A stretch of 20,000 nt of DNA from an uncultured virus (IMG/VR IMGVR_UViG_3300005201_000009) (IMGVR_UViG_3300005201_000009), one strand, 5' to 3'; shown: positions 1,659 to 19,805, counted from the first letter of the stretch. Numbers and translations are program-made. Notes: generated by a model not told the origin, from the letters alone.

Positions 1659-4247
1659 TCAGGGTGCCCTCTTAATGAAGGCGCCGGGGTCGATTTCAAC
1701 ATAGCCGCCGTCAAGGCGTTTAACCGATGGCGTTTTAGCCGCGTCGTCACGCAAAGACGCCCTTTTATCCGCGATGAGCTTACGTATATCGGCAAAGTCG
1801 GGGTGCGTGGCCACAATATGTACTGCGGCGTAGCGCGCACCGTCCAAGGTGTGAATAGGACTGCTTTTACCTACTCCTTTTGGGATTTTGTTGTCCTTGT
1901 CCCGCATAGCAAGATTAAGTGCCTCGGCAACGTCTTTGGCAATTTTACAAACTATGAACCGACTCAGATAGCATAACTTGCTGACCAAGAAACACGAATC
2001 CTCTACCAGCGGGCTTTTTTTCTTGTAAATAATCTTAATATTGTACCGACGCAACTCTTGCGCCATAGACGGGAATGTGTCCTTTATAGTCACATCCGGC
2101 AGCCATTTGATTTCCTGCTCGGGAAAGTCGTGCCGCACAACACTCGCCGCGTCGTCGAGACTGGGGAAGTCATAGTGTTTTATGCAGTATATCACACCGC
2201 CGCGCACGACGTACGCAGAGCCGCGATTATAGCCGGTATTCACATCCTGCGCCCAATAAACTACCTCATCAGGCCTTAATTTAATATCCAAATCATAACC
2301 GACGTAATTGCGCGCCCAATCAAACCCCGGGATAACCCGCCCCTTGGCAATCGATAGAAACTCGCCGTGCATGAACACCTCGCGCTCCTCGGGGGTGTAC
2401 ATTTTGTACATGTCTTCGATGAGACTTTTTGGTAAAAACGGGTTGTGCTCAGTCCACCCTCTAATAAGAACGAACGCGATACCCGTCTTCTTAAAATGAC
2501 AGTATACCGCGTATAGCCCCTTCTGGCCTTGTGATGTGCTCGCAAAACAATTATGGACTAGAAACTTGTTTGTAAAAAACTCGTGCTCGTCTTCAACAGT
2601 TATATCATACACGGACTCTAATTTTCGCAGCGCGTGTAGGGGAACAAGTTTTTGCATGCCTTCTTTTACGTGTCCTAAAAGCTTTTCCACAAATGATGCA
2701 CGCTCTATCCTCAAAAAACTTTCTTCCAAACCCAGGTTTATCAATTGTTCTAATCTTATCACGGCATCTCTGAGAGCAGAAGTGAGACGGCAATTTTGAT
2801 ATATATTTTGTTTTACAAACAAAGCACTCACATTCGTAGTGTCCCGCACCTCTTTCTCTGCTTTTTTCACGAGCGGCTTCTTTAGCCTGCCTGTTCCTAC
2901 GAAGCCTTCTACAAGTTTCACACCTAACACGCTGCTCCGCGCCTGTCGTAAAAACAGCCCTACAATCGACACAAACCTTCCTAATCGAGACTTTGTTCCA
3001 AACACCTGTATAGGTTCCTTGACTTCGCTTTTTGTCGCGTTCTTTACACTGGTTTTTACGTCTGACTGTCTGGCATCTATCACACCTAATCTTGTTTTTT
3101 CCGTCTGTGATAACCATTTCTCCACAATCAACACAAGGTCTATAGTAAAAGCTCTGTTTATTTCCTCCGTGATATACGTTGTGTTGGTGCTCTGTAACGC
3201 AGTCCAAGTTTTCAATAGTGTTATTAGCTGTGTTAAAATCTTTATGGTGTATAACCATTCCTGCTGAAACCGCCCCGTGAACGCTTTCCCATACAGCCAC
3301 ATGCAGTGCCTTAGATCTTTCACCCTTAGACGCAATAGACCTGTAATATCCTTGAGGCTTTTTAGGGTTGTGTTGCCAATAGTATCTAACCCCATTAAAA
3401 GCAACAGAGCTTCGTTTGTCTTTTTCAAACAATTTTGTATCTTTTGCCACTGCTTTACTCTCCGTAATGAAATTGATAATAAATGCTCATTGTTCTTTAT
3501 CGTTCCAACTTCTTGCCAATCTTTTATGCTCTCATTCCACACTGTGTGATCTGGTGTTAAGGGAACGCCGTGAACACGAACTATCTCTCGATACCCTGTG
3601 TTGTACTTACCGATAATCCTTCGCCATCCGCGTCGAGTAAGCACAAAATCCCCAACACTAATGTCTACTATGCGGCATAAAAAAGGATCGGTCAACCCGT
3701 ATATACGTTTTACATCTACTTTTCTACATATAATCTTTGCATTCCCTCCCAGGCAAGTGCACGGCCCCCGCTCACCAGGTATCACCTGCCGGCAGCGCTC
3801 GTTTAGCGCTTTGGTCGCTTCCAGCATTTTATCCGTCGTAAGCTCGTCCGCTTCCTCGACGTAAATCTTATGCACATCCAGCCCGAATATCTCGCCGGGG
3901 TTCTCCAACGGCTGCAACAGCACCGTCACCGTGCCGATAGTGAAGTAGTTGAATTTCTTATTCTCGATATACGGAGTCTTGCTGTCGTCCAAATACTGCC
4001 GGAAATATATTAAAAACGTCTTTTCCAAGTGGCTGAGCGTGATGCCGCAAACCATGAGACGCACGTAGTCACCGGCACGGTCTTTCTTTCCTTGAAGCCT
4101 TTTTACATCGTACAGCACATGTAAGACGTTGGCGCGCGTTTTACCTGCCCCATAACCGCAACAAAGGAAGAACCACTTTACTTTATGAAATAAAGACGGC
4201 GCTTGCATATAATAACTTTGGTGTGGTAAAACGATCGCTCTTTTCAC
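1659..4247 (-). CDS. terL: Terminase large subunit, intein-containing
   Basis: Walker A CGYGAGKT, Walker B IYVEEAD, coupling-motif region FASTSQG, nuclease motifs WAQDVN and HTLDGARYA. GTG at 4247 is 6 nt from AAGGAGG, whereas the track's TTG at 4253 abuts the RBS. Confidence 0.92.
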   Translation of the reverse strand: MKRAIVLPHQSYYMQAPSLFHKVKWFFLCCGYGAGKTRANVLHVLYDVKRLQGKKDRAGDYVRLMVCGITLSHLEKTFLIYFRQYLDDSKTPYIENKKFNYFTIGTVTVLLQPLENPGEIFGLDVHKIYVEEADELTTDKMLEATKALNERCRQVIPGERGPCTCLGGNAKIICRKVDVKRIYGLTDPFLCRIVDISVGDFVLTRRGWRRIIGKYNTGYREIVRVHGVPLTPDHTVWNESIKDWQEVGTIKNNEHLLSISLRRVKQWQKIQNCLKKTNEALLLLMGLDTIGNTTLKSLKDITGLLRLRVKDLRHCMWLYGKAFTGRFQQEWLYTIKILTQLITLLKTWTALQSTNTTYITEEINRAFTIDLVLIVEKWLSQTEKTRLGVIDARQSDVKTSVKNATKSEVKEPIQVFGTKSRLGRFVSIVGLFLRQARSSVLGVKLVEGFVGTGRLKKPLVKKAEKEVRDTTNVSALFVKQNIYQNCRLTSALRDAVIRLEQLINLGLEESFLRIERASFVEKLLGHVKEGMQKLVPLHALRKLESVYDITVEDEHEFFTNKFLVHNCFASTSQGQKGLYAVYCHFKKTGIAFVLIRGWTEHNPFLPKSLIEDMYKMYTPEEREVFMHGEFLSIAKGRVIPGFDWARNYVGYDLDIKLRPDEVVYWAQDVNTGYNRGSAYVVRGGVIYCIKHYDFPSLDDAASVVRHDFPEQEIKWLPDVTIKDTFPSMAQELRRYNIKIIYKKKSPLVEDSCFLVSKLCYLSRFIVCKIAKDVAEALNLAMRDKDNKIPKGVGKSSPIHTLDGARYAAVHIVATHPDFADIRKLIADKRASLRDDAAKTPSVKRLDGGYVEIDPGAFIKRAP
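2550..3755 (-). mobile_element. Intein (402 aa) in terL
   Basis: N-terminal block A CLGGNAKI after extein GPCT; block B LTPDHTVW; block F VYDITVEDEHEFF; block G LVHN followed by Cys+1 (CFAS). Removal restores GPCT|CFASTSQG. Confidence 0.93.
2605..3450 (-). CDS. HNH homing endonuclease with C-terminal Cys-x2-Cys zinc-finger repeats, in an alternative frame inside the intein
   Basis: 281-aa ORF with LHVAVWESVHG...IHHKDFNTANNTIENLDCVTEHQHNVYH (HNH_3-type) and several CxxC pairs; own GGAG RBS before GTG at 3450; frame differs from terL. Confidence 0.88.
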   Translation of the reverse strand: MAKDTKLFEKDKRSSVAFNGVRYYWQHNPKKPQGYYRSIASKGERSKALHVAVWESVHGAVSAGMVIHHKDFNTANNTIENLDCVTEHQHNVYHGGNKQSFYYRPCVDCGEMVITDGKNKIRCDRCQTVRRKNQCKERDKKRSQGTYTGVWNKVSIRKVCVDCRAVFTTGAEQRVRCETCRRLRRNRQAKEAAREKSRERGAGHYECECFVCKTKYISKLPSHFCSQRCRDKIRTIDKPGFGRKFFEDRACIICGKAFRTRKRRHAKTCSPTRAAKIRVRV

Positions 4248-4278
4248 GATCAACCTCCTTTGCGCTTAGGCACTGGAA

Positions 4279-5005: not shown

Positions 5006-5164
5006 GAGTTTTGAGATCAAATTATTATTCCGCACAACACGCGCTATTTAGCACAGAATGTTAACAACGCGCCGCAAAAAATACACAAAAGGCCGCCGGA
5101 ACTCCGCAGATACTACCAAGAACAGAGGCTGCCATAAAGGCAGCTTTTCCGGCGGCCAGCACAA

Positions 5165-6682
5165 TCACGAAGCCTTCTCCTCCGGCTTAACGTACGGCCC
5201 GAAGTCCCAGCGCTCGCACCCAATAAATAGGTCCTCGTCGTTTTTGAGTGCTGTAATCGTACGCATTATACCGTAAATCCTTATCTGCTCATAGACTCGG
5301 TGTATCGCGGGACTGCTAAACGGCCAGTGCGCCGGCTCCGGCGGAAACGGATCTTCGTATTCGGGATCGTCGAACAGGCTACCGTTATACGGATTTCCAT
5401 CGTACGGCAAAGTGGGCAGCAAGCGCCACTCGTCGCGCCCCCTGGTCGGGCACGTGGTGGTAGGCGCGTTTGCCGGACCGAAAGGCGGCCTGCCTTCATA
5501 CATCTCCAAAATTTCCTCTTGTATCCTGTCGAGATCTTTTTCACTCAAACTGCCGTCCTCGTTTTCACGCGCCTTATACAGCACGTCAAGGTTCTCCGAC
5601 CATTGCATGTACTCCTCCCGCACAAATTTAAGCGCGTCAAGCGAGTCTTTTACCGGGCGTCCAAGCTCTGCGGCAAACTCCTTTACGTAGTCGATAAACT
5701 CCCATATCTCCTTCTTCTCCTCGTACTTCGCGCGATCCGCCAAAGCCTTCTCGCGCTTCGCCTGCTGCGCCCGCTCCTTCGCCTCGGCGCGCACCTTTGC
5801 TTTCTCCGCGTTTCTCCGCAGCAACACTGCCGCCGTGTCCGTCTCGTCGTCGTCCGACGGCACTTGCGGCTTAGCGGGGCTCCTGTCCTCAATCATGCCG
5901 GTCTTAGGGCCTTCCAAGAATTTCTGGTTGGCGTTCGCCATTATCATCGACGATTTCCACTTGCGGTAGTCGTCGAACCTTATTTTTTCGCGGCGTCCGA
6001 ATCTGCCTAACAGCGGCATAAACTCCTTTTCCAGCGAATCCGTTATGTACGGCGACAGCACGTTATATTTATCCAAACTCGCCGGCGCGATGCGCAGGAA
6101 CTCGCCGTTGGCGTCGTAAATGACCAGAAACCGTTTGCGCCCGTTTACGCGATCCCACAGCGCGTACACCCTCCCACCGTCCTCCTTTTCAGTGTAAATC
6201 CTCTCCGTAATTTTCGGTATGCCAATAATACCCGACTCAGGGAACGCCTCGTGCATGCCGCTGATGCCCAGGTTTTCGATATTCTGCACGTCTTCCTTGC
6301 TCATTATCACATAGCCTTCCTGCTGCAAGCGCTCGGCGAACATCTGGCGGTAACGGGCGTCGATGAGCTCAGGGGTGTTCCACGCCTTTTCGATTTTTAG
6401 CAGGTACTGTGTTATTTGCCTGCCTTTCTCATTCCGTTCACTTGCAGCCAGTAACTTAGCCCTGTCCACTGCGAGCAAGTAGTCTTTTTCTGGCCTTCCT
6501 ACCTCACCGGTACTTTCCGTAGACGCTTCAAAGAAATCGTCTCCCTCAACAAATTCGTACTCCTCTACGCGAATACTAAACCACTTCCTAAACTCCGTCT
6601 TAACCCCAAGCGCTTCATGCAGTCCACGGGCGCTCACTAGCTGTTTATTGTCCTGTGCAACAACCTTAATCAATGCATCCAT
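5165..6682 (-). CDS. AntA/AntB-family antirepressor with long C-terminal extension
   Basis: N-terminus VSARGLHEALGVKTEFRKWF...FVEGDDF...KDYLLAVDRAK...NEKGRQITQYLLKIEKAWNTPE is typical of AntA/AntB. ATG at 6682 has an AGGGAG RBS; coiled-coil region further on. Confidence 0.85.
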   Translation of the reverse strand: MDALIKVVAQDNKQLVSARGLHEALGVKTEFRKWFSIRVEEYEFVEGDDFFEASTESTGEVGRPEKDYLLAVDRAKLLAASERNEKGRQITQYLLKIEKAWNTPELIDARYRQMFAERLQQEGYVIMSKEDVQNIENLGISGMHEAFPESGIIGIPKITERIYTEKEDGGRVYALWDRVNGRKRFLVIYDANGEFLRIAPASLDKYNVLSPYITDSLEKEFMPLLGRFGRREKIRFDDYRKWKSSMIMANANQKFLEGPKTGMIEDRSPAKPQVPSDDDETDTAAVLLRRNAEKAKVRAEAKERAQQAKREKALADRAKYEEKKEIWEFIDYVKEFAAELGRPVKDSLDALKFVREEYMQWSENLDVLYKARENEDGSLSEKDLDRIQEEILEMYEGRPPFGPANAPTTTCPTRGRDEWRLLPTLPYDGNPYNGSLFDDPEYEDPFPPEPAHWPFSSPAIHRVYEQIRIYGIMRTITALKNDEDLFIGCERWDFGPYVKPEEKAS

Positions 6683-6749
6683 AATTCTTCTCCCTAATTG
6701 TTTGTAATTTTGCGGCACAACGTACCGCAGTGAAATCGTGCGGGCATAG

Positions 6750-6826
6750 AAAAGCCCTGGTGAACCTGTAAGCCTAGCAGTTTAACAGGAGGCTACCTTG
6801 AAAAGGTGGGCCGATCACCAGGGCAA
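6750..6826 (-). ncRNA. Putative c4/CI-like cloverleaf antisense RNA
   Basis: Closing stem GCCCTGGTGA/TCACCAGGGC (6754-6763, 6815-6824), two inner stem-loops, then a U-tract on the minus strand; located upstream of the antirepressor; one arm is complementary to the 7901-7916 leader segment. Confidence 0.6.
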
Positions 6827-6921
6827 CTTACCCCAATTATATTGTTCCCGGCAAACTGCCGGGGCCGGTTGTTCTATTGCGGCGCATGACGCACTGCAAT
6901 ACCGAGGAGCAGGGTTATATT

Positions 6922-6940
6922 TATTACTATTATAGTAATA
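6922..6940. promoter_or_regulatory. Operator-like palindrome
   Basis: TATTACTAT-T-ATAGTAATA: perfect 9-bp arms with a 1-nt centre. Confidence 0.4.
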
Positions 6941-7081
6941 TATCCCAAATCGCCCAAATCGCGCGCGGTTAACGGTTTGAGCGAGCGCTCCCACAATTCC
7001 GGGTAACTTTTTGAGCAGGAGAATCGCCGGGGGCTTATGGCGTCCCTAAACCCCTAGCGACTCTCCTTTCTTAAAAACTTC

Positions 7082-7873
7082 CTAGCCTACATACTCCCTC
7101 AACAACTCTACAAACTCCTTACAAGTCAACGATTCGGCATGGGGGAATTCGCGGAATAGGTTAGCCGCGAACCATGCGATTTTCTTTGTCGCCGGGTCTT
7201 CACGCCCGGCGCGGCTGGTTATGTAACCCACCGATACATTGGCGGCGCATAGTTCTTTGATCCTCCTTTGTACCGTGGGGGATAACCGCGCGGTATAATC
7301 CGCGAAAAACAAGCGCAAGTTTTGCCTTACCTGGTCGCGGGCGTTCTGTAGCTCTTTATCCATCATCAACTGCGCCGGGTCTTCTTCTGTCTCCCGTGAC
7401 TCCCATGCTGTATACAATGTCCCTAGCACCTTCCCCATTGACCGTGTCGATCGGGTTGCCTTGTCTACCATTTGCGGATAGTGCAGCGTCAACATATCAT
7501 TGTTGACATTGCCGATCATATAATCCGGCGTTGATTCATTGCCTGCGTTGATCCGGTTGATCCGCGCTACCTCACGCGCTGTATTATCCGCGCTTATCGA
7601 TCGGGTGATGCGACAACCGCGATCGCCCACTTGCTCAGCCTCTAGCGCGTCCAGTGCCTGGGCGTAACTGTAGGCCGTGCCCCTGCGCTTTGCGGCCTTG
7701 AGCGCGCCGATAGTATACATAATTGCGGCGTCCTGGGGATCGATACCCCTTGATTCCGCGATCGCCTCAATCTTCCCCCGCCGGGAAGAATCCAAAAACA
7801 ACAATGCACACGCTGTCACACGTGCCATGATCCGGGGCGGCAATTGCCGCATTTGGTTGGTACTGCTACTCAT
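7082..7873 (-). CDS. Hypothetical protein, candidate divergent sigma70-family factor
   Basis: 263 aa with GGAGG RBS. RGIDPQDAAIMYTIGALKAAKR resembles sigma region 2.2 (GlxxeDLiqeGxiGLxkA); DPAQLMMDKE...LSPTVQRRI resembles the entry to region 4. The ORF is well supported; the function is inferred. Confidence 0.5.
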   Translation of the reverse strand: MSSSTNQMRQLPPRIMARVTACALLFLDSSRRGKIEAIAESRGIDPQDAAIMYTIGALKAAKRRGTAYSYAQALDALEAEQVGDRGCRITRSISADNTAREVARINRINAGNESTPDYMIGNVNNDMLTLHYPQMVDKATRSTRSMGKVLGTLYTAWESRETEEDPAQLMMDKELQNARDQVRQNLRLFFADYTARLSPTVQRRIKELCAANVSVGYITSRAGREDPATKKIAWFAANLFREFPHAESLTCKEFVELLREYVG

Positions 7874-7926
7874 AATAGTAACCTCCGATTTAGAATTCGA
7901 TAAACTGCTAGGCTTATCTATCTATC

Positions 7927-7955
7927 ATTATTGCAAATTTTTAATTATTTGTCAA
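7927..7955 (-). promoter_or_regulatory. Sigma70 promoter for the 7873 gene
   Basis: Minus strand TTGACA-N17-AATAAT with TGc extension and AT-rich upstream sequence. Confidence 0.7.
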
Positions 7956-8090
7956 GCGCAAAAACACAAAAAAGTGAAAATTTTTAAATTATTTTTAAAT
8001 GGGTAAATTGGAGAAATTGGGGGCCGCCGGGGACATGGGCCGCCTATGTCTCTTGTGTTACAAACTCTATCATAAACAGCCTTGAGCCTA

Positions 8091-8188
8091 GGGGGTTTCG
8101 GTTTTTTCCCGAAACCCCCCTCATTCTGCCAAACCCTACCGGGGGTTTCGGTTTTTTTCCCGAAACCCCCCTCATTCTGCCAAACCCT
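8091..8188. repeat. Tandem duplication of a ~50-bp hairpin unit
   Basis: Two copies (8091-8140, 8141-8188) of GGGGGTTTCGG-T6/7C-CCGAAACCCCC-CTCATTCTGCCAAACCCT, each with an 11-bp perfect stem. Confidence 0.95.
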
Positions 8189-8251
8189 GCTACACCTTAA
8201 ATAATTTCGTCTTTTTTTTTTCCCGTAATTACCCATTTTCATCAAACCCTG

Positions 8252-8392
8252 TTACCCCTTGAATCCGTTGATCACACCGTGCTTTTTAACGTATTCAACC
8301 CTCCGTAAATAGGCCGCCGCTATCTTTGGGTTACGGGCTTTGTGGCTTTTATGGAGCCATAAATACTTGAAAATCACTTGATCCGCGCTCAT
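8252..8392 (-). CDS. Small basic hypothetical protein (46 aa)
   Basis: MSADQVIFKYL..., AGGAGG RBS, preceded by the repeated motif at 8412-8441. Confidence 0.7.
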   Translation of the reverse strand: MSADQVIFKYLWLHKSHKARNPKIAAAYLRRVEYVKKHGVINGFKG

Positions 8393-8411: not shown

Positions 8412-8441
8412 ATACGCGCCGAAACAGCGCGGTGTGTAAAA
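8412..8441 (-). promoter_or_regulatory. Repeated bipartite promoter-like motif, copy A
   Basis: Minus strand TTTTACACAC-cgcgctgtttcggcg-CGTAT. Confidence 0.75.
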
Positions 8442-8530
8442 ATAATTGCAAAAAAAGACCGTGGCAAAAAAAGCGCGGAATCCGGCAAAAAAACAAAAAA
8501 GATGCGGTTTTTCGGGGTTTTTGAGTTGAT

Positions 8531-8585
8531 TTTAACTCTATTAAATTATGTTATGGGTAACAATCACGATTATGCTTTTTTTAAA
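8531..8585 (+). repeat. Inverted repeat, left arm
   Basis: TTTAACTCTATTAAATTATGTTATGGGTAACAATCACG (8531-8568) is the exact reverse complement of 9076-9113; similarity extends to about 55 bp. Confidence 0.95.
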
Positions 8586-8615: not shown

Positions 8616-8883
8616 GGTGACTTTTCCACAAGTTTTTAAAAATTTCTGTAAATTTCCCTCCGTGCTACACACTACACTATAGATACTACTACTACACACT
8701 ACACTATAGATACTACTACTACACACTGCTACTACGGAAATAAAGCCAATATTTTGTTATGCGACACGCACAAAAAAATAGTTAATTTTGGTAGCTTGTA
8801 TAGTATTCCTGACATTTTGTTAAGTAGTTTTTTGTCAAGAAAATGATAATCTTTAAAAACGGTGACTTTTCCACAAGTTTTTA
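8616..8883 (+). repeat. 23-bp direct repeat pair containing DnaA-box-like TTTTCCACA
   Basis: GGTGACTTTTCCACAAGTTTTTA at 8616-8638 and 8861-8883; TTTTCCACA fits TTWTNCACA. Confidence 0.85.
8665..8727 (+). repeat. 27-bp tandem repeat (2.3 copies)
   Basis: CTACACACTACACTATAGATACTACTA at 8665-8691 and 8692-8718, plus a partial third copy. Confidence 0.95.
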
Positions 8884-8896
8884 TATTTTTAGGTGA

Positions 8897-8926
8897 TTTT
8901 ACACACCTTGAGTATTTTACGCGTAA
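8897..8926 (+). promoter_or_regulatory. Repeated motif, copy B
   Basis: TTTTACACAC-cttgagtattttacg-CGTAA. Confidence 0.6.
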
Positions 8927-8996: not shown

Positions 8997-9059
8997 AATA
9001 GCGGAAAGTTACATTTTCCAGTTTTTGAACCCCCAAAATAGAGCAAAAAAAGAGACATT

Positions 9060-9113
9060 TTTAAAAAAACATAACCGTGATTGTTACCCATAACATAATT
9101 TAATAGAGTTAAA
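9060..9113 (-). repeat. Inverted repeat, right arm
   Basis: Reverse complement of 8531-8585 with one mismatch and one indel. Confidence 0.95.
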
Positions 9114-9145
9114 TTATGTCACGAATATATAAAACCAATGATAAT

Positions 9146-9175
9146 TTTTACACACGGCGCGTATTTAAAGCGTTA
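9146..9175 (+). promoter_or_regulatory. Repeated motif, copy C
   Basis: TTTTACACAC-ggcgcgtatttaaag-CGTTA. Confidence 0.7.
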
Positions 9176-9205
9176 AAGGCATAAGCAACAAAAACAGTAA
9201 TAATT

Positions 9206-9235
9206 TTTTACACACCGCGCTATTTTGGCGCGTTA
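9206..9235 (+). promoter_or_regulatory. Repeated motif, copy D
   Basis: TTTTACACAC-cgcgctattttggcg-CGTTA, followed by AAGGAG RBS and ATG 9262. Confidence 0.8.
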
Positions 9236-9725: not shown

Positions 9726-9751
9726 TTCTGTTTTTAATTTTTAAGAAATAT

Positions 9752-9781
9752 TTTTACACACGGCGCGTTTTTCCAGCGGTA
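9752..9781 (+). promoter_or_regulatory. Repeated motif, copy E
   Basis: TTTTACACAC-ggcgcgtttttccag-CGGTA. Confidence 0.7.
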
Positions 9782-17801: not shown

Positions 17802-18343
17802 CACTATCGCCCGGCGTCGAGTTCGACGAACAAAAACACGAGTATTGGTACAATGGCAAGCAGCTCTCCGGCATCACCGGGCTGATAAATAAAAAACTCC
17901 GGCTGAAAATGCCGCAGGAGTTTCTCGAGGAGCATCAGGAAGAAGGCATCCACGTCCACAAGGCGATACAGAAGTGGATTGAGACCGGCGACTCAGGGAG
18001 CGTGCATCCGGGGGTGCGGTGGCTGACGGGGGAGTTCCGGGGGCACTACCCCAACGGGCAGATATATTCCGAGGTTTTGGTGTCTGATTTTGACCGGTAC
18101 GCGTCGGCGATAGACATCGTGCTGGCGATGGGCGACGGACTGACTATTTTTGACATTAAAAAAGGCGTCTTCAAAAGGGATTACGTAACGTGGCAACTTT
18201 CGATTTATAAGTATTTTGCAGAAAAGGTCGGGAAGCGCGTGGTTGACTGTGTGTGCCTCTGCCTGCGGGACAAGGAGTTCTACCCGATATTCCCGAAACC
18301 GGCAGAAGACGTGGAGAAACTGCTGTATGGGGCTACTGTTTAA
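17798..18343 (+). CDS. PD-(D/E)XK nuclease (phage exonuclease, Cas4-like fold)
   Basis: FDEQKHEY...SGIT...GIHVHKAI...SE...AIDIV...IFDIK...WQLSIY. Confidence 0.85.
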   Translation: MTLSPGVEFDEQKHEYWYNGKQLSGITGLINKKLRLKMPQEFLEEHQEEGIHVHKAIQKWIETGDSGSVHPGVRWLTGEFRGHYPNGQIYSEVLVSDFDRYASAIDIVLAMGDGLTIFDIKKGVFKRDYVTWQLSIYKYFAEKVGKRVVDCVCLCLRDKEFYPIFPKPAEDVEKLLYGATV

Positions 18344-19805
18344 ACACCCACTTATCCAATATCCTGTAAACTTCGCGGGCCTTCTTGAGCAGTAGCGCCT
18401 GGCCTACTTTGTCTTTGCGGTTGTAGCGTTTTGCTACGTCTGACGAAACCTTGTGGCCCATGAAGTATTCTTCAACGTCGCCTAAGCCGTTCGCGTTCAT
18501 CAATGTCTTCCAAAAGTGGCGGCCGGAGTAGAAGGTTATGTTTTCTTTTTTGATGTATGCGTCCACTTCATCCAGCCTAATGCCGAGCTTCGTGTGCAGC
18601 TTTTCGCACAATACGCGCTTTGCGCTCAAGTATACACGGGAATGTTTAACCGTAAATAAACAGTCGTCCTCGCGGGCGCCTGTTTTTCTGATGTACGCCA
18701 TTATTTTTTCATATGCAAACGGGTGCAGCGGTACAATACGGATGCCATTCTCGCTCTTGCTTGCCGGTATATCGATGAAGTAACAATCCTTTATCTTGAT
18801 AATGTCCTTTGTCTGCACGCGTTCAATTTCGCTGTTGCGCATATCGGTAGTGTAGATAAGCATATCGAGGAAGTACTCAAGTTCTTCGCGCCATTTACGG
18901 TTGAAGACGCCGTTTAATTTATCCAGCTCATAACAGCCGCGCGGTTTGCAATCAACTACTTTTAGTCTGGTTATCTTATCAAAGACGTTTTCGCTAATGA
19001 TACCGTTCATTACCATGTGATCGAAAATAGTGCTTACGCCGCTGAAATGCTGGTTTACCGTTTGAGCCTTGCTGCCGCTGCCGAGTTCGTGGGTTTGTAG
19101 CTTGGCGAGGAGCGGCGGGGTGATGCCGTCAAAATCGAATATGCCGTTTTTGCGCAGGAATGGTATAAAAACTTTACAAATCCATCTATGTGACGCCGCC
19201 CGCGCGCGCGGGTTAACATTTCTCCCGCGTTTTTGAGCTTCGTCAAAGTATGCGGATCCTTCCTTGTAGTAATTGCTCAGAATAGAGAACATTTTTTGAT
19301 CGGTGCTGTATAATTGTTTTTTCGCATAATAATCGTGCAGTATTCTTTCTCTGTTCTCTACGGCAAACTGTTCGGCAGCTTCGCGGTTGTTGGTGTGCGT
19401 ATTCCATCGAGAGTGTATAAGTTTTCCCTTTTCAATATAGCGGACGTAGTATAGAAAGCCGTATTTTTTACTGGAGACTTTGGCAAGGTTGTAGCCTTTT
19501 GCTTTTCGTTTCTCTGCGAACTGACCGTTGAGCGCTTTTAGTGATTGAATGGTGTCAGAGAATGTTGATTTATAGTACGAGCGCAGACTGTCAAGGTATT
19601 TATTGCTTTCAAGATTAATTTGCGGTCTTGTTTGTAACCACTCAGAAATAAGGTAGGCGTTAAAGCGAATCTCGTCGCCGTGTTGACCATGTACGTAAGT
19701 ATGTGGTATTATGCCGTTACGCACTAATACGTCAAGCGTTTGTTGATCTATACTGAGAGCGTATGCGGCTTGGCTAGGCGTTAAAAAAGGCGACAATGTA
19801 CTCAT
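18333..19805 (-). CDS. Tyrosine recombinase/integrase with N-terminal excisionase-like HTH
   Basis: Catalytic motifs TTDMRNSE, SKSENG, FYSGRH, MGH, AKRYN; N-terminal LTPSQAAYALSIDQQTL...GIIP...IRF. Confidence 0.9.
   Translation of the reverse strand: MSTLSPFLTPSQAAYALSIDQQTLDVLVRNGIIPHTYVHGQHGDEIRFNAYLISEWLQTRPQINLESNKYLDSLRSYYKSTFSDTIQSLKALNGQFAEKRKAKGYNLAKVSSKKYGFLYYVRYIEKGKLIHSRWNTHTNNREAAEQFAVENRERILHDYYAKKQLYSTDQKMFSILSNYYKEGSAYFDEAQKRGRNVNPRARAASHRWICKVFIPFLRKNGIFDFDGITPPLLAKLQTHELGSGSKAQTVNQHFSGVSTIFDHMVMNGIISENVFDKITRLKVVDCKPRGCYELDKLNGVFNRKWREELEYFLDMLIYTTDMRNSEIERVQTKDIIKIKDCYFIDIPASKSENGIRIVPLHPFAYEKIMAYIRKTGAREDDCLFTVKHSRVYLSAKRVLCEKLHTKLGIRLDEVDAYIKKENITFYSGRHFWKTLMNANGLGDVEEYFMGHKVSSDVAKRYNRKDKVGQALLLKKAREVYRILDKWVFKQ

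Follow-up and report, generated by a model that had tools for sequence, protein, structure and literature searches.

A conserved small RNA of an uncultured temperate phage, with an address loop that covaries with the 5' end of an upstream mRNA, probably acts as a c4-like repressor

The minus strand of a 20,000-nucleotide (nt) stretch of DNA from an uncultured virus (IMG/VR IMGVR_UViG_3300005201_000009; the whole stretch is called the window, and W when compared with related loci) was found to encode, at positions 6750-6824, a conserved small RNA of about 75 nt. One of its loops is exactly complementary to the 5' end of the messenger RNA (mRNA) of an upstream gene for a 263-amino-acid protein (7082-7873, minus strand), and a second, constant segment is complementary to the Shine-Dalgarno (SD) region of the same gene. 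Judging from sequence comparison and predicted structure, we consider it probable that the RNA belongs to a new family and acts in trans as a repressor, working like the c4 RNA of phage P1. That the two RNAs genuinely interact is very likely, and that the outcome is repression in trans is also favoured, at a clearly lower level of assurance. An earlier inspection of the DNA (the sequence-only reading) had proposed a c4/CI-like antisense RNA; its covarying arm and target and its three-way topology were borne out, and its C4/CI family assignment was not.

Folding of the minus-strand RNA from 6735 to 6835 gave a three-way junction with a 10-base-pair (bp) closing stem (GCCCUGGUGA/UCACCAGGGC), a first hairpin (GGC..ACCUU-UUC-AAGGU.GCC), a second hairpin in which CCUGU and ACAGG enclose a 16-nt address loop (6769-6784, minus strand; unpaired in the centroid structure), and CUUUUC after the junction, the RNA ending in UUUU. 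This agrees with the closing stem, the ACCTT-TTC-AAGGT hairpin and the U-tract described by the sequence-only reading. The minimum free energy was -39.7 kcal/mol (z score -2.76), a value equalled by 2 of 200 shuffled sequences. When W was aligned with three related loci on metagenomic phage contigs (L001, L003 and L004), RNAalifold returned 23 pairs, 9 of them with compensatory double changes, while in a seven-sequence alignment 92.9% of cells were paired and both sides had changed in 12 of the 23 pairs. None of 500 shuffled controls reached any of five measures for this alignment, and pairing dropped to at most 52% when the partners were slid. Because of the double changes, the shuffled controls and the drop in the slid controls, the region 6750-6824 is a real and conserved RNA structure.

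A covariance model (R1) seeded with the same four sequences returned 90-95 bits for its seeds (90.7 bits, E 2.9e-27 for the window), 71.4 bits for the non-seed copy in locus L007 and 25.0 bits for a diverged copy in L005, so that the RNA adjoins homologues of the 263-amino-acid gene in five other metagenomic phage contigs (L001, L003, L004, L005 and L007). The DNA of these relatives came from profile scans, which yielded six metagenome and four viral loci representing eight distinct relatives; a single-sequence scan of viral contigs for relatives of the 263-amino-acid protein found none, genome contigs likewise gave none, and a second profile scan added one weak new fragment only (L170). Five loci are complete with leader and RNA (W, L001, L003, L004 and L007), L002 and L005 having no leader and L002 no RNA either. 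Scans with RNA patterns were also performed: a strict pattern found the L004 contig only, and a looser one 37 viral stretches and at least 120 genome stretches. Loci matched by the looser pattern (35 of the 37 viral and 80 of the at least 120 genome stretches) were rejected as family members, since model R1 gave them only 19.6-24.6 bits, which we regard as the pattern's own contribution.

The loop sequence TAAGCCTAGCAGTTTA (6769-6784) and the leader sequence TAAACTGCTAGGCTTA (7901-7916) form an exact inverted pair, 100% complementary and 1116 nt apart; a direct sequence check and an inverted-repeat listing both agreed with the sequence-only reading on this point. On the minus strand, the leader copy is the best same-strand duplex site for the hairpin-2 loop in the 20-kb window, with a duplex energy of -26.5 kcal/mol (-25.7 kcal/mol with a shorter loop string). 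It follows a near-consensus promoter of the 263-amino-acid gene (TTGACA-17-AATAAT, TG-extended, 11 of 12 matches; 7927-7955, minus strand), from which transcription is therefore predicted to start near 7920, placing the target at about +5 to +20, within the first 20 or so nucleotides of the mRNA as had been suggested. The mRNA is predicted to begin with a hairpin that presents the target (7899-7918, minus strand; 7-pair stem, 6-nt loop). In all five leaders the target lies inside such a 5'-terminal hairpin, of which it makes up the 5' arm and the loop, and in all five a TTGAC(A/T)-17/18 promoter directly precedes it, the target starting a few nucleotides from the predicted start. This geometry fits a loop-loop ('kissing') onset of pairing. 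Two further elements were seen upstream of the promoter. An A/T-tract element (minus strand TTTAAAAATTTTCACTTTTTTG) occurs at 7967-7988, 8836-8857, 9044-9065, 9131-9152 and 9190-9211; its copies at 7967 and 8836 immediately precede a TTGACA, it is kept ahead of the 263-amino-acid gene promoter in L001, L003, L004 and L007, and it might serve as an UP element or bind an activator. Two tandem 47-nt repeats (8091-8188), each with a perfect GGGGGTTTCGG/CCGAAACCCCC hairpin between T and A runs, are probably bidirectional terminators.

Complementarity between loop and leader was conserved across the related phages while its letters changed. Exact complements between leader and downstream sequence were found in L001 (12-mer), L003 (13-mer) and L004 (15-mer), each of a different sequence and each with its downstream copy within the same RNA scaffold as in W. 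When the hairpin-2 loop was searched for helices against the leader, taken as the 110 nt preceding the start codon, the longest helices measured 16, 12, 13, 15 and 16 bp in W, L001, L003, L004 and L007, respectively, the last comprising 12 Watson-Crick pairs and being lengthened through a G-U pair. The address letters thus differ in each phage, with a loop of 14-16 nt and a complementarity of 12-16 bp in all five loci. Duplex energies were -22.1 to -26.1 kcal/mol for the cognate pairs versus -3.8 to -13.9 kcal/mol for the 20 non-cognate pairs, and out of 2000 shuffled loops per locus the observed helix length was reached by 0 (W), 3 (L001), 1 (L003), 2 (L004) and 0 (L007). In whole-locus scans the leader was the best same-strand site in four loci and the second best in L001, behind the RNA's own hairpin. 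The covariation between arm and target, which the sequence-only reading had suggested looking for, therefore holds in all five testable loci, and the complementarity is far beyond chance.

An exact inverted repeat on both sides of one gene could also act as DNA, either as a pair of recombinase sites inverting the 1.1-kb segment or as twin protein-binding sites. No recombinase gene adjoins the repeats, however; of the two arms, one is invariably found in the loop of a conserved, covarying RNA fold and its partner within +1 to +20 of a transcript. The repeat also has a different sequence in every relative, with a length of 12 to 16, and in L007 the pairing is kept through a G-U pair, which is workable in RNA only. 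Because of this G-U pair and the changing sequence we give a DNA-level role hardly any credence.

The sequence-only reading was right about the 16-nt arm and missed a predicted second contact, with the SD region. An almost invariant segment, GGYARCCUCC(UGU), made up of the 3' arm of hairpin 1 together with the junction, immediately precedes the address loop on its 5' side; CCUCCUG within it is identical in six phage copies. In the window this segment (GGUAGCCUCC; 6788-6797, minus strand) is complementary to the SD sequence and spacer of the 263-amino-acid gene (GGAGGUUACU; 7877-7886, minus strand), with which it would form a 10-bp helix of eight Watson-Crick and two G-U pairs, the top same-strand site. 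The corresponding helices measured 10, 11, 9, 9 and 11 bp in W, L001, L003, L004 and L007, the SD site ranking first or joint first among the same-strand matches of the segment in each of the five loci, and L007 carries one double change (UUACU to UUGCU in the mRNA together with GGUAG to GGCAG in the RNA). RNAcofold predicted the address and SD helices together in all five pairs. The order of the sites suits antiparallel pairing, as the mRNA reads 5'-address site...SD-3' and the small RNA 5'-anti-SD, address loop-3'. Along the mRNA the SD region lies 13-77 nt downstream of the address site; in L003 and L004 the additional 40-80 nt between the two sites are self-contained hairpins, which would hold the sites spatially close. 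These leader hairpins (1717-1790 in L003, 2457-2480 in L004) are stable; those of L003 share complementary loops or arms (AACCAUUGG, CCAAUGGUU), so that an alternative fold is possible.

Together, these features suggest a mechanism in which the variable 14-16-nt loop of hairpin 2 would pair with the 5'-terminal hairpin of the mRNA (+5 to +20) as a phage-specific loop-loop address, and the constant segment would pair with the SD region, so that translation of the 263-amino-acid gene would likely be blocked. In loci where an antirepressor gene (ant) shares the transcript, such as L001 and L007, a drop in ant expression would also be expected. The small RNA would then be a phage-specific immunity factor, as c4 is in P1.

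Pairing might have the opposite effect and raise expression of the 263-amino-acid gene, by shielding the mRNA from decay that depends on its 5' end or by opening a hairpin around the start codon. The target is indeed the extreme 5' end of the mRNA, a known site of decay control, and in W, L001 and L004 the AUG is predicted to lie within a small hairpin. In W this hairpin (7860-7885, minus strand) holds the start codon in its loop (GUUACU-AUUAUG-AGUAGC); in L001 and L004 the stem letters are different, and the 5' arm shares nucleotides with the site to which the constant segment of the small RNA is complementary. That segment is complementary to the SD sequence itself, however, which predicts occlusion and not activation, and the closest working analogues, P1 c4 and P4 CI, figure as repressors in the pertinent passages of PMC8546580 and PMC4825925. 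An activating or stabilising role consequently appears improbable to us, and repression is retained as the preferred outcome.

As to how the repressor would be made, all RNA copies end with a G+C-rich closing stem followed by U4-6, and the closing stem and U-tract would double as an intrinsic terminator. In L001, L003, L004 and L007 a promoter-like TTGACA/TTGATT-17-TATGTT/TATATT/TATGGT sequence ends 6-7 nt 5' of the closing stem, while in W a TATAAT (6836-6841, minus strand), 11 nt ahead of the closing stem, is a possible -10. The promoter-like sites in four of the five loci and the U-tracts argue for an independent gene with a terminator, not for a piece processed by RNase P. The simplest reading is thus that the small RNA is an independent gene of about 75 nt whose terminator would also end the upstream operon. 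P1 c4 and P4 CI differ in being cut from longer transcripts, c4 being released from its operon transcript by RNase P, and Citron and Schuster reportedly described in 1992 a CCACC-type 3' end for processed c4. A further comparison is with MicL and DapZ, small RNAs at mRNA 3' ends that have their own internal promoter, share the terminator of the mRNA and act through Hfq-dependent seed pairing with other genes. The present RNA resembles them in lying at the 3' end of an operon, with a common terminator and a probable promoter within the last gene or just past it, and differs from them in that its target would be the 5' end of the operon from which it stems. The 250-nt spacer between the 263-amino-acid gene and the small RNA in W (6830-7081, minus strand) is itself strongly structured (z score -5.67 for 6690-7090, none of 100 shuffles being as stable), with a long hairpin just past the stop codon and, at 6919-6943, a 12-nt palindrome that has TATAAT at its centre, and it is shorter in relatives sharing the same gene order.

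Several observations weigh against a trans-acting repressor with two contacts. The sample comprises just five complete loci, and beside two more distant homologues of the 263-amino-acid gene (L006 and L009, 32-35% identity) model R1 found no RNA, nor was there a convincing helix between leader and downstream sequence. The SD contact is less secure than the address contact, as it rests mostly on sequence conserved by descent and on one compensatory event; CCUCC is complementary to any strong SD sequence, and the anti-SD segment is partly base-paired in the free RNA. The RNA's own promoter is weak in W, where the TATAAT has no good -35, and a promoter scan listed a promoter for the RNA in two of the five loci only (L001 and L004; not W, L003 or L007). 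In W the terminator of the RNA stands between the target gene and ant, so control of ant would there need read-through. Finally, the operon's own transcript also has the RNA at its 3' end, which would allow pairing in cis.

Pairing in cis is the main rival explanation. It holds that the structure is the terminator of the transcript of the 263-amino-acid gene (or of this gene and ant) and that there is no free small RNA; the loop and the 5' hairpin of the same mRNA would circularise it and alter its stability or translation. In its favour, the RNA closes the transcription unit with a stem and U-tract in every locus, and W lacks a good -35 for a separate promoter. Against it stand the promoter-like sites 6-7 nt ahead of the closing stem in the four other loci, and the layout of the blocks, which is gene-RNA-ant in W, gene-ant-RNA in L001 and L007, gene-RNA in L004 and gene-orf-RNA (orf, open reading frame) in L003. 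The distance from target to RNA ranges from 1.1 to 2.1 kb with unrelated cargo between them, which is an easier fit for a diffusible RNA. We thus regard pairing in cis as unlikely, albeit as the most serious competitor, and infer that the small RNA acts in trans.

The nature of the target protein was examined by several searches. It has 86 metagenomic homologues at E<=0.001 and matched no Pfam, PHROG or NCBIfam family, while AlphaFold2 with a 40-sequence alignment gave a confident model of two helical domains (predicted local distance difference test score 81). A Pfam search with 40 family members returned no sigma domain among the best 25 of 36 matched families. Foldseek against the PDB found nothing at E<=0.001 (best E 1.1; sigma chains only at E 3.5-5, with template modelling scores of 0.13-0.16), and a wide structural search reached at best Z 6.0, mostly with long-helix matches and with no sigma chain among the best 50. 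A sequence profile against the PDB gave a best E of 0.4, and the ESM Atlas no usable match. Because family, profile and structure searches gave no identification, the label 'sigma-like' that the sequence-only reading had attached to the gene is unsupported. From its place at the head of a block that runs into terminase genes, we conjecture that the 263-amino-acid protein is a late regulator.

The antirepressor in the same block was correctly recognised. The ant gene (5165-6682, minus strand), directly 3' of the small RNA's U-tract, encodes an AntA domain (PF08346; 71.9 bits versus a Pfam gathering cut-off of 27, E 6.7e-20) and also matched PHROG anti-repressor families (best E 3.1e-24). It is followed on its 3' side by a gene for a 229-amino-acid protein and then by the large terminase, and an integrase is encoded at 18333-19805 of the window. 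The phage is temperate and uncultured, and the small RNA may have a role in a lysis/lysogeny switch, as had been proposed. No cultured-phage match was found for the 4.5-kb region by blastn or for the 263-amino-acid protein by tblastn, and the sole match of the terminase among cultured phages was Tetrasphaera phage TJE1 (29% identity over 32% of the length). The terminase itself (864 amino acids; 1659-4253, minus strand) matched terminase families over two non-adjacent stretches (residues 195-376 and 597-817), which, with a sub-threshold match to an intein splicing domain (24.5 bits versus a cut-off of 35.8), suggests an intein or another insertion.

Comparison with known immunity RNAs was performed in both directions. 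The C4 family of Rfam (RF01695, clan CL00128) had no match in the window at its gathering score of 45 bits, and C4, c4-a1b1 and isrK returned nothing at E<=10 in 6500-8300 or in L001, L003, L004 and L007, although the same kind of search on P1 found c4 with 68.8 bits and c4-a1b1 with 51 bits. Conversely, model R1 returned nothing at c4 in the P1 region, so there is no covariance-model similarity in either direction. The scaffold is uncatalogued as judged by Rfam alone, no literature search having been aimed at this RNA family. The likeness to P1 and P7 c4 is one of architecture: both are phage small RNAs of about 75-77 nt with a closing stem, a short hairpin and a second hairpin whose recognition loop is large, as in the C4 consensus line; both would make a bipartite antisense contact that includes the ribosome-binding site; an antirepressor lies in the same block, and the recognition letters vary between related phages. 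According to a passage in PMC8546580, c4 represses Ant synthesis in trans. In the annotated record of P1, immI consists of promoters, a1 and b1, c4 (77 nt), a2 and b2, icd and ant1/2, with b2 11 nt before icd; by our reading, the hairpin-2 loop of c4 would be complementary to b2 at the icd ribosome-binding site and the single strand after hairpin 2 to a2. The functional sites a2 and b2 of P1 are thus just downstream of c4, with decoys a1 and b1 upstream, whereas here the sole site is upstream at the mRNA 5' end, and the locus scan found no comparable site 3' of the small RNA. The address is 12-16 nt long at the extreme 5' end of the upstream gene here and the P1 sites are 7-8 nt long; contact with the SD sequence would be made by the junction together with the 3' arm of hairpin 1, not by the hairpin-2 loop as in c4; the small RNA ends in a U-tract terminator and is probably transcribed from its own promoter, whereas c4 is processed; and no icd-like small gene is present here.

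In its position downstream of the target within the same transcription unit, and in its complementarity to an upstream sequence, the small RNA resembles P4 CI, the upstream sequence in P4 being seqA (PMC4825925). As the relevant passage of that source has it, CI pairs with an upstream site (seqA) and a downstream site (seqC) and causes premature transcription termination. Here no downstream site was found, the 43-nt leader in W (7874-7920) contained no terminator-like site by scan or fold, and Rfam models related to CI gave no match.

In the window, the ant stop codon is directly followed by another, diverged copy of the RNA fold (5077-5163, minus strand; model R1 25.7 bits, E 8.9e-6). Its closing stem is nearly the same as that of the L007 RNA, and it occupies the position after ant that the RNA has in L001 and L007. 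Its anti-SD segment is altered to CCUCU, and its 16-nt loop has no complementary target in the window or in the other leaders. This copy would appear to be decaying and to serve now as the terminator of ant.

Other repeats were seen outside this gene block. Two 55-nt inverted repeats, 95% complementary (8531-8585 and 9059-9113), enclose 473 nt that contain an open reading frame of 119 amino acids without a family and an exact 27-nt tandem duplication (8665-8718); the segment 8531-9113 could be invertible or mobile, or could form a very long hairpin. The motif TTTTTACACAC(C/G)GCGCG occurs at 8895-8926, 9144-9175, 9204-9235 and 9750-9781, and inverted at 8414-8442, within the A+T-rich region separating divergent gene blocks, and looks like a putative operator set of a phage regulator.

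To our knowledge, RNA immunity of the c4/CI type is known almost only from P1-, P7- and P4-like enterobacterial elements and their Rfam relatives. The RNA described here would carry the c4/CI logic on a different RNA scaffold, in an unrelated lineage of uncultured phages, and with two readily testable design features, namely an address loop directed against the first nucleotides of the mRNA and a fixed anti-SD segment. We are evenly divided on a broader proposal, that these RNAs form a modular immunity family in which a self-terminating three-way junction combines a constant anti-SD 'effector' with a swappable 'address' loop reading the 5'-terminal hairpin of a key operon. If so, related phages would become mutually non-immune by co-changing about 15 letters at two places, and recombination at the RNA gene would bring in or remove cargo genes, antirepressors for example, with decayed copies like that at 5077-5163 left behind. 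The function 'controlled by an immunity RNA' may also be offered for the 263-amino-acid protein family, which has at least 86 unnamed phage members. The five cognate pairs, with little predicted cross-talk, would be a natural set of orthogonal RNA-target pairs, and covariance model R1 can be used for annotating metagenomic phages.

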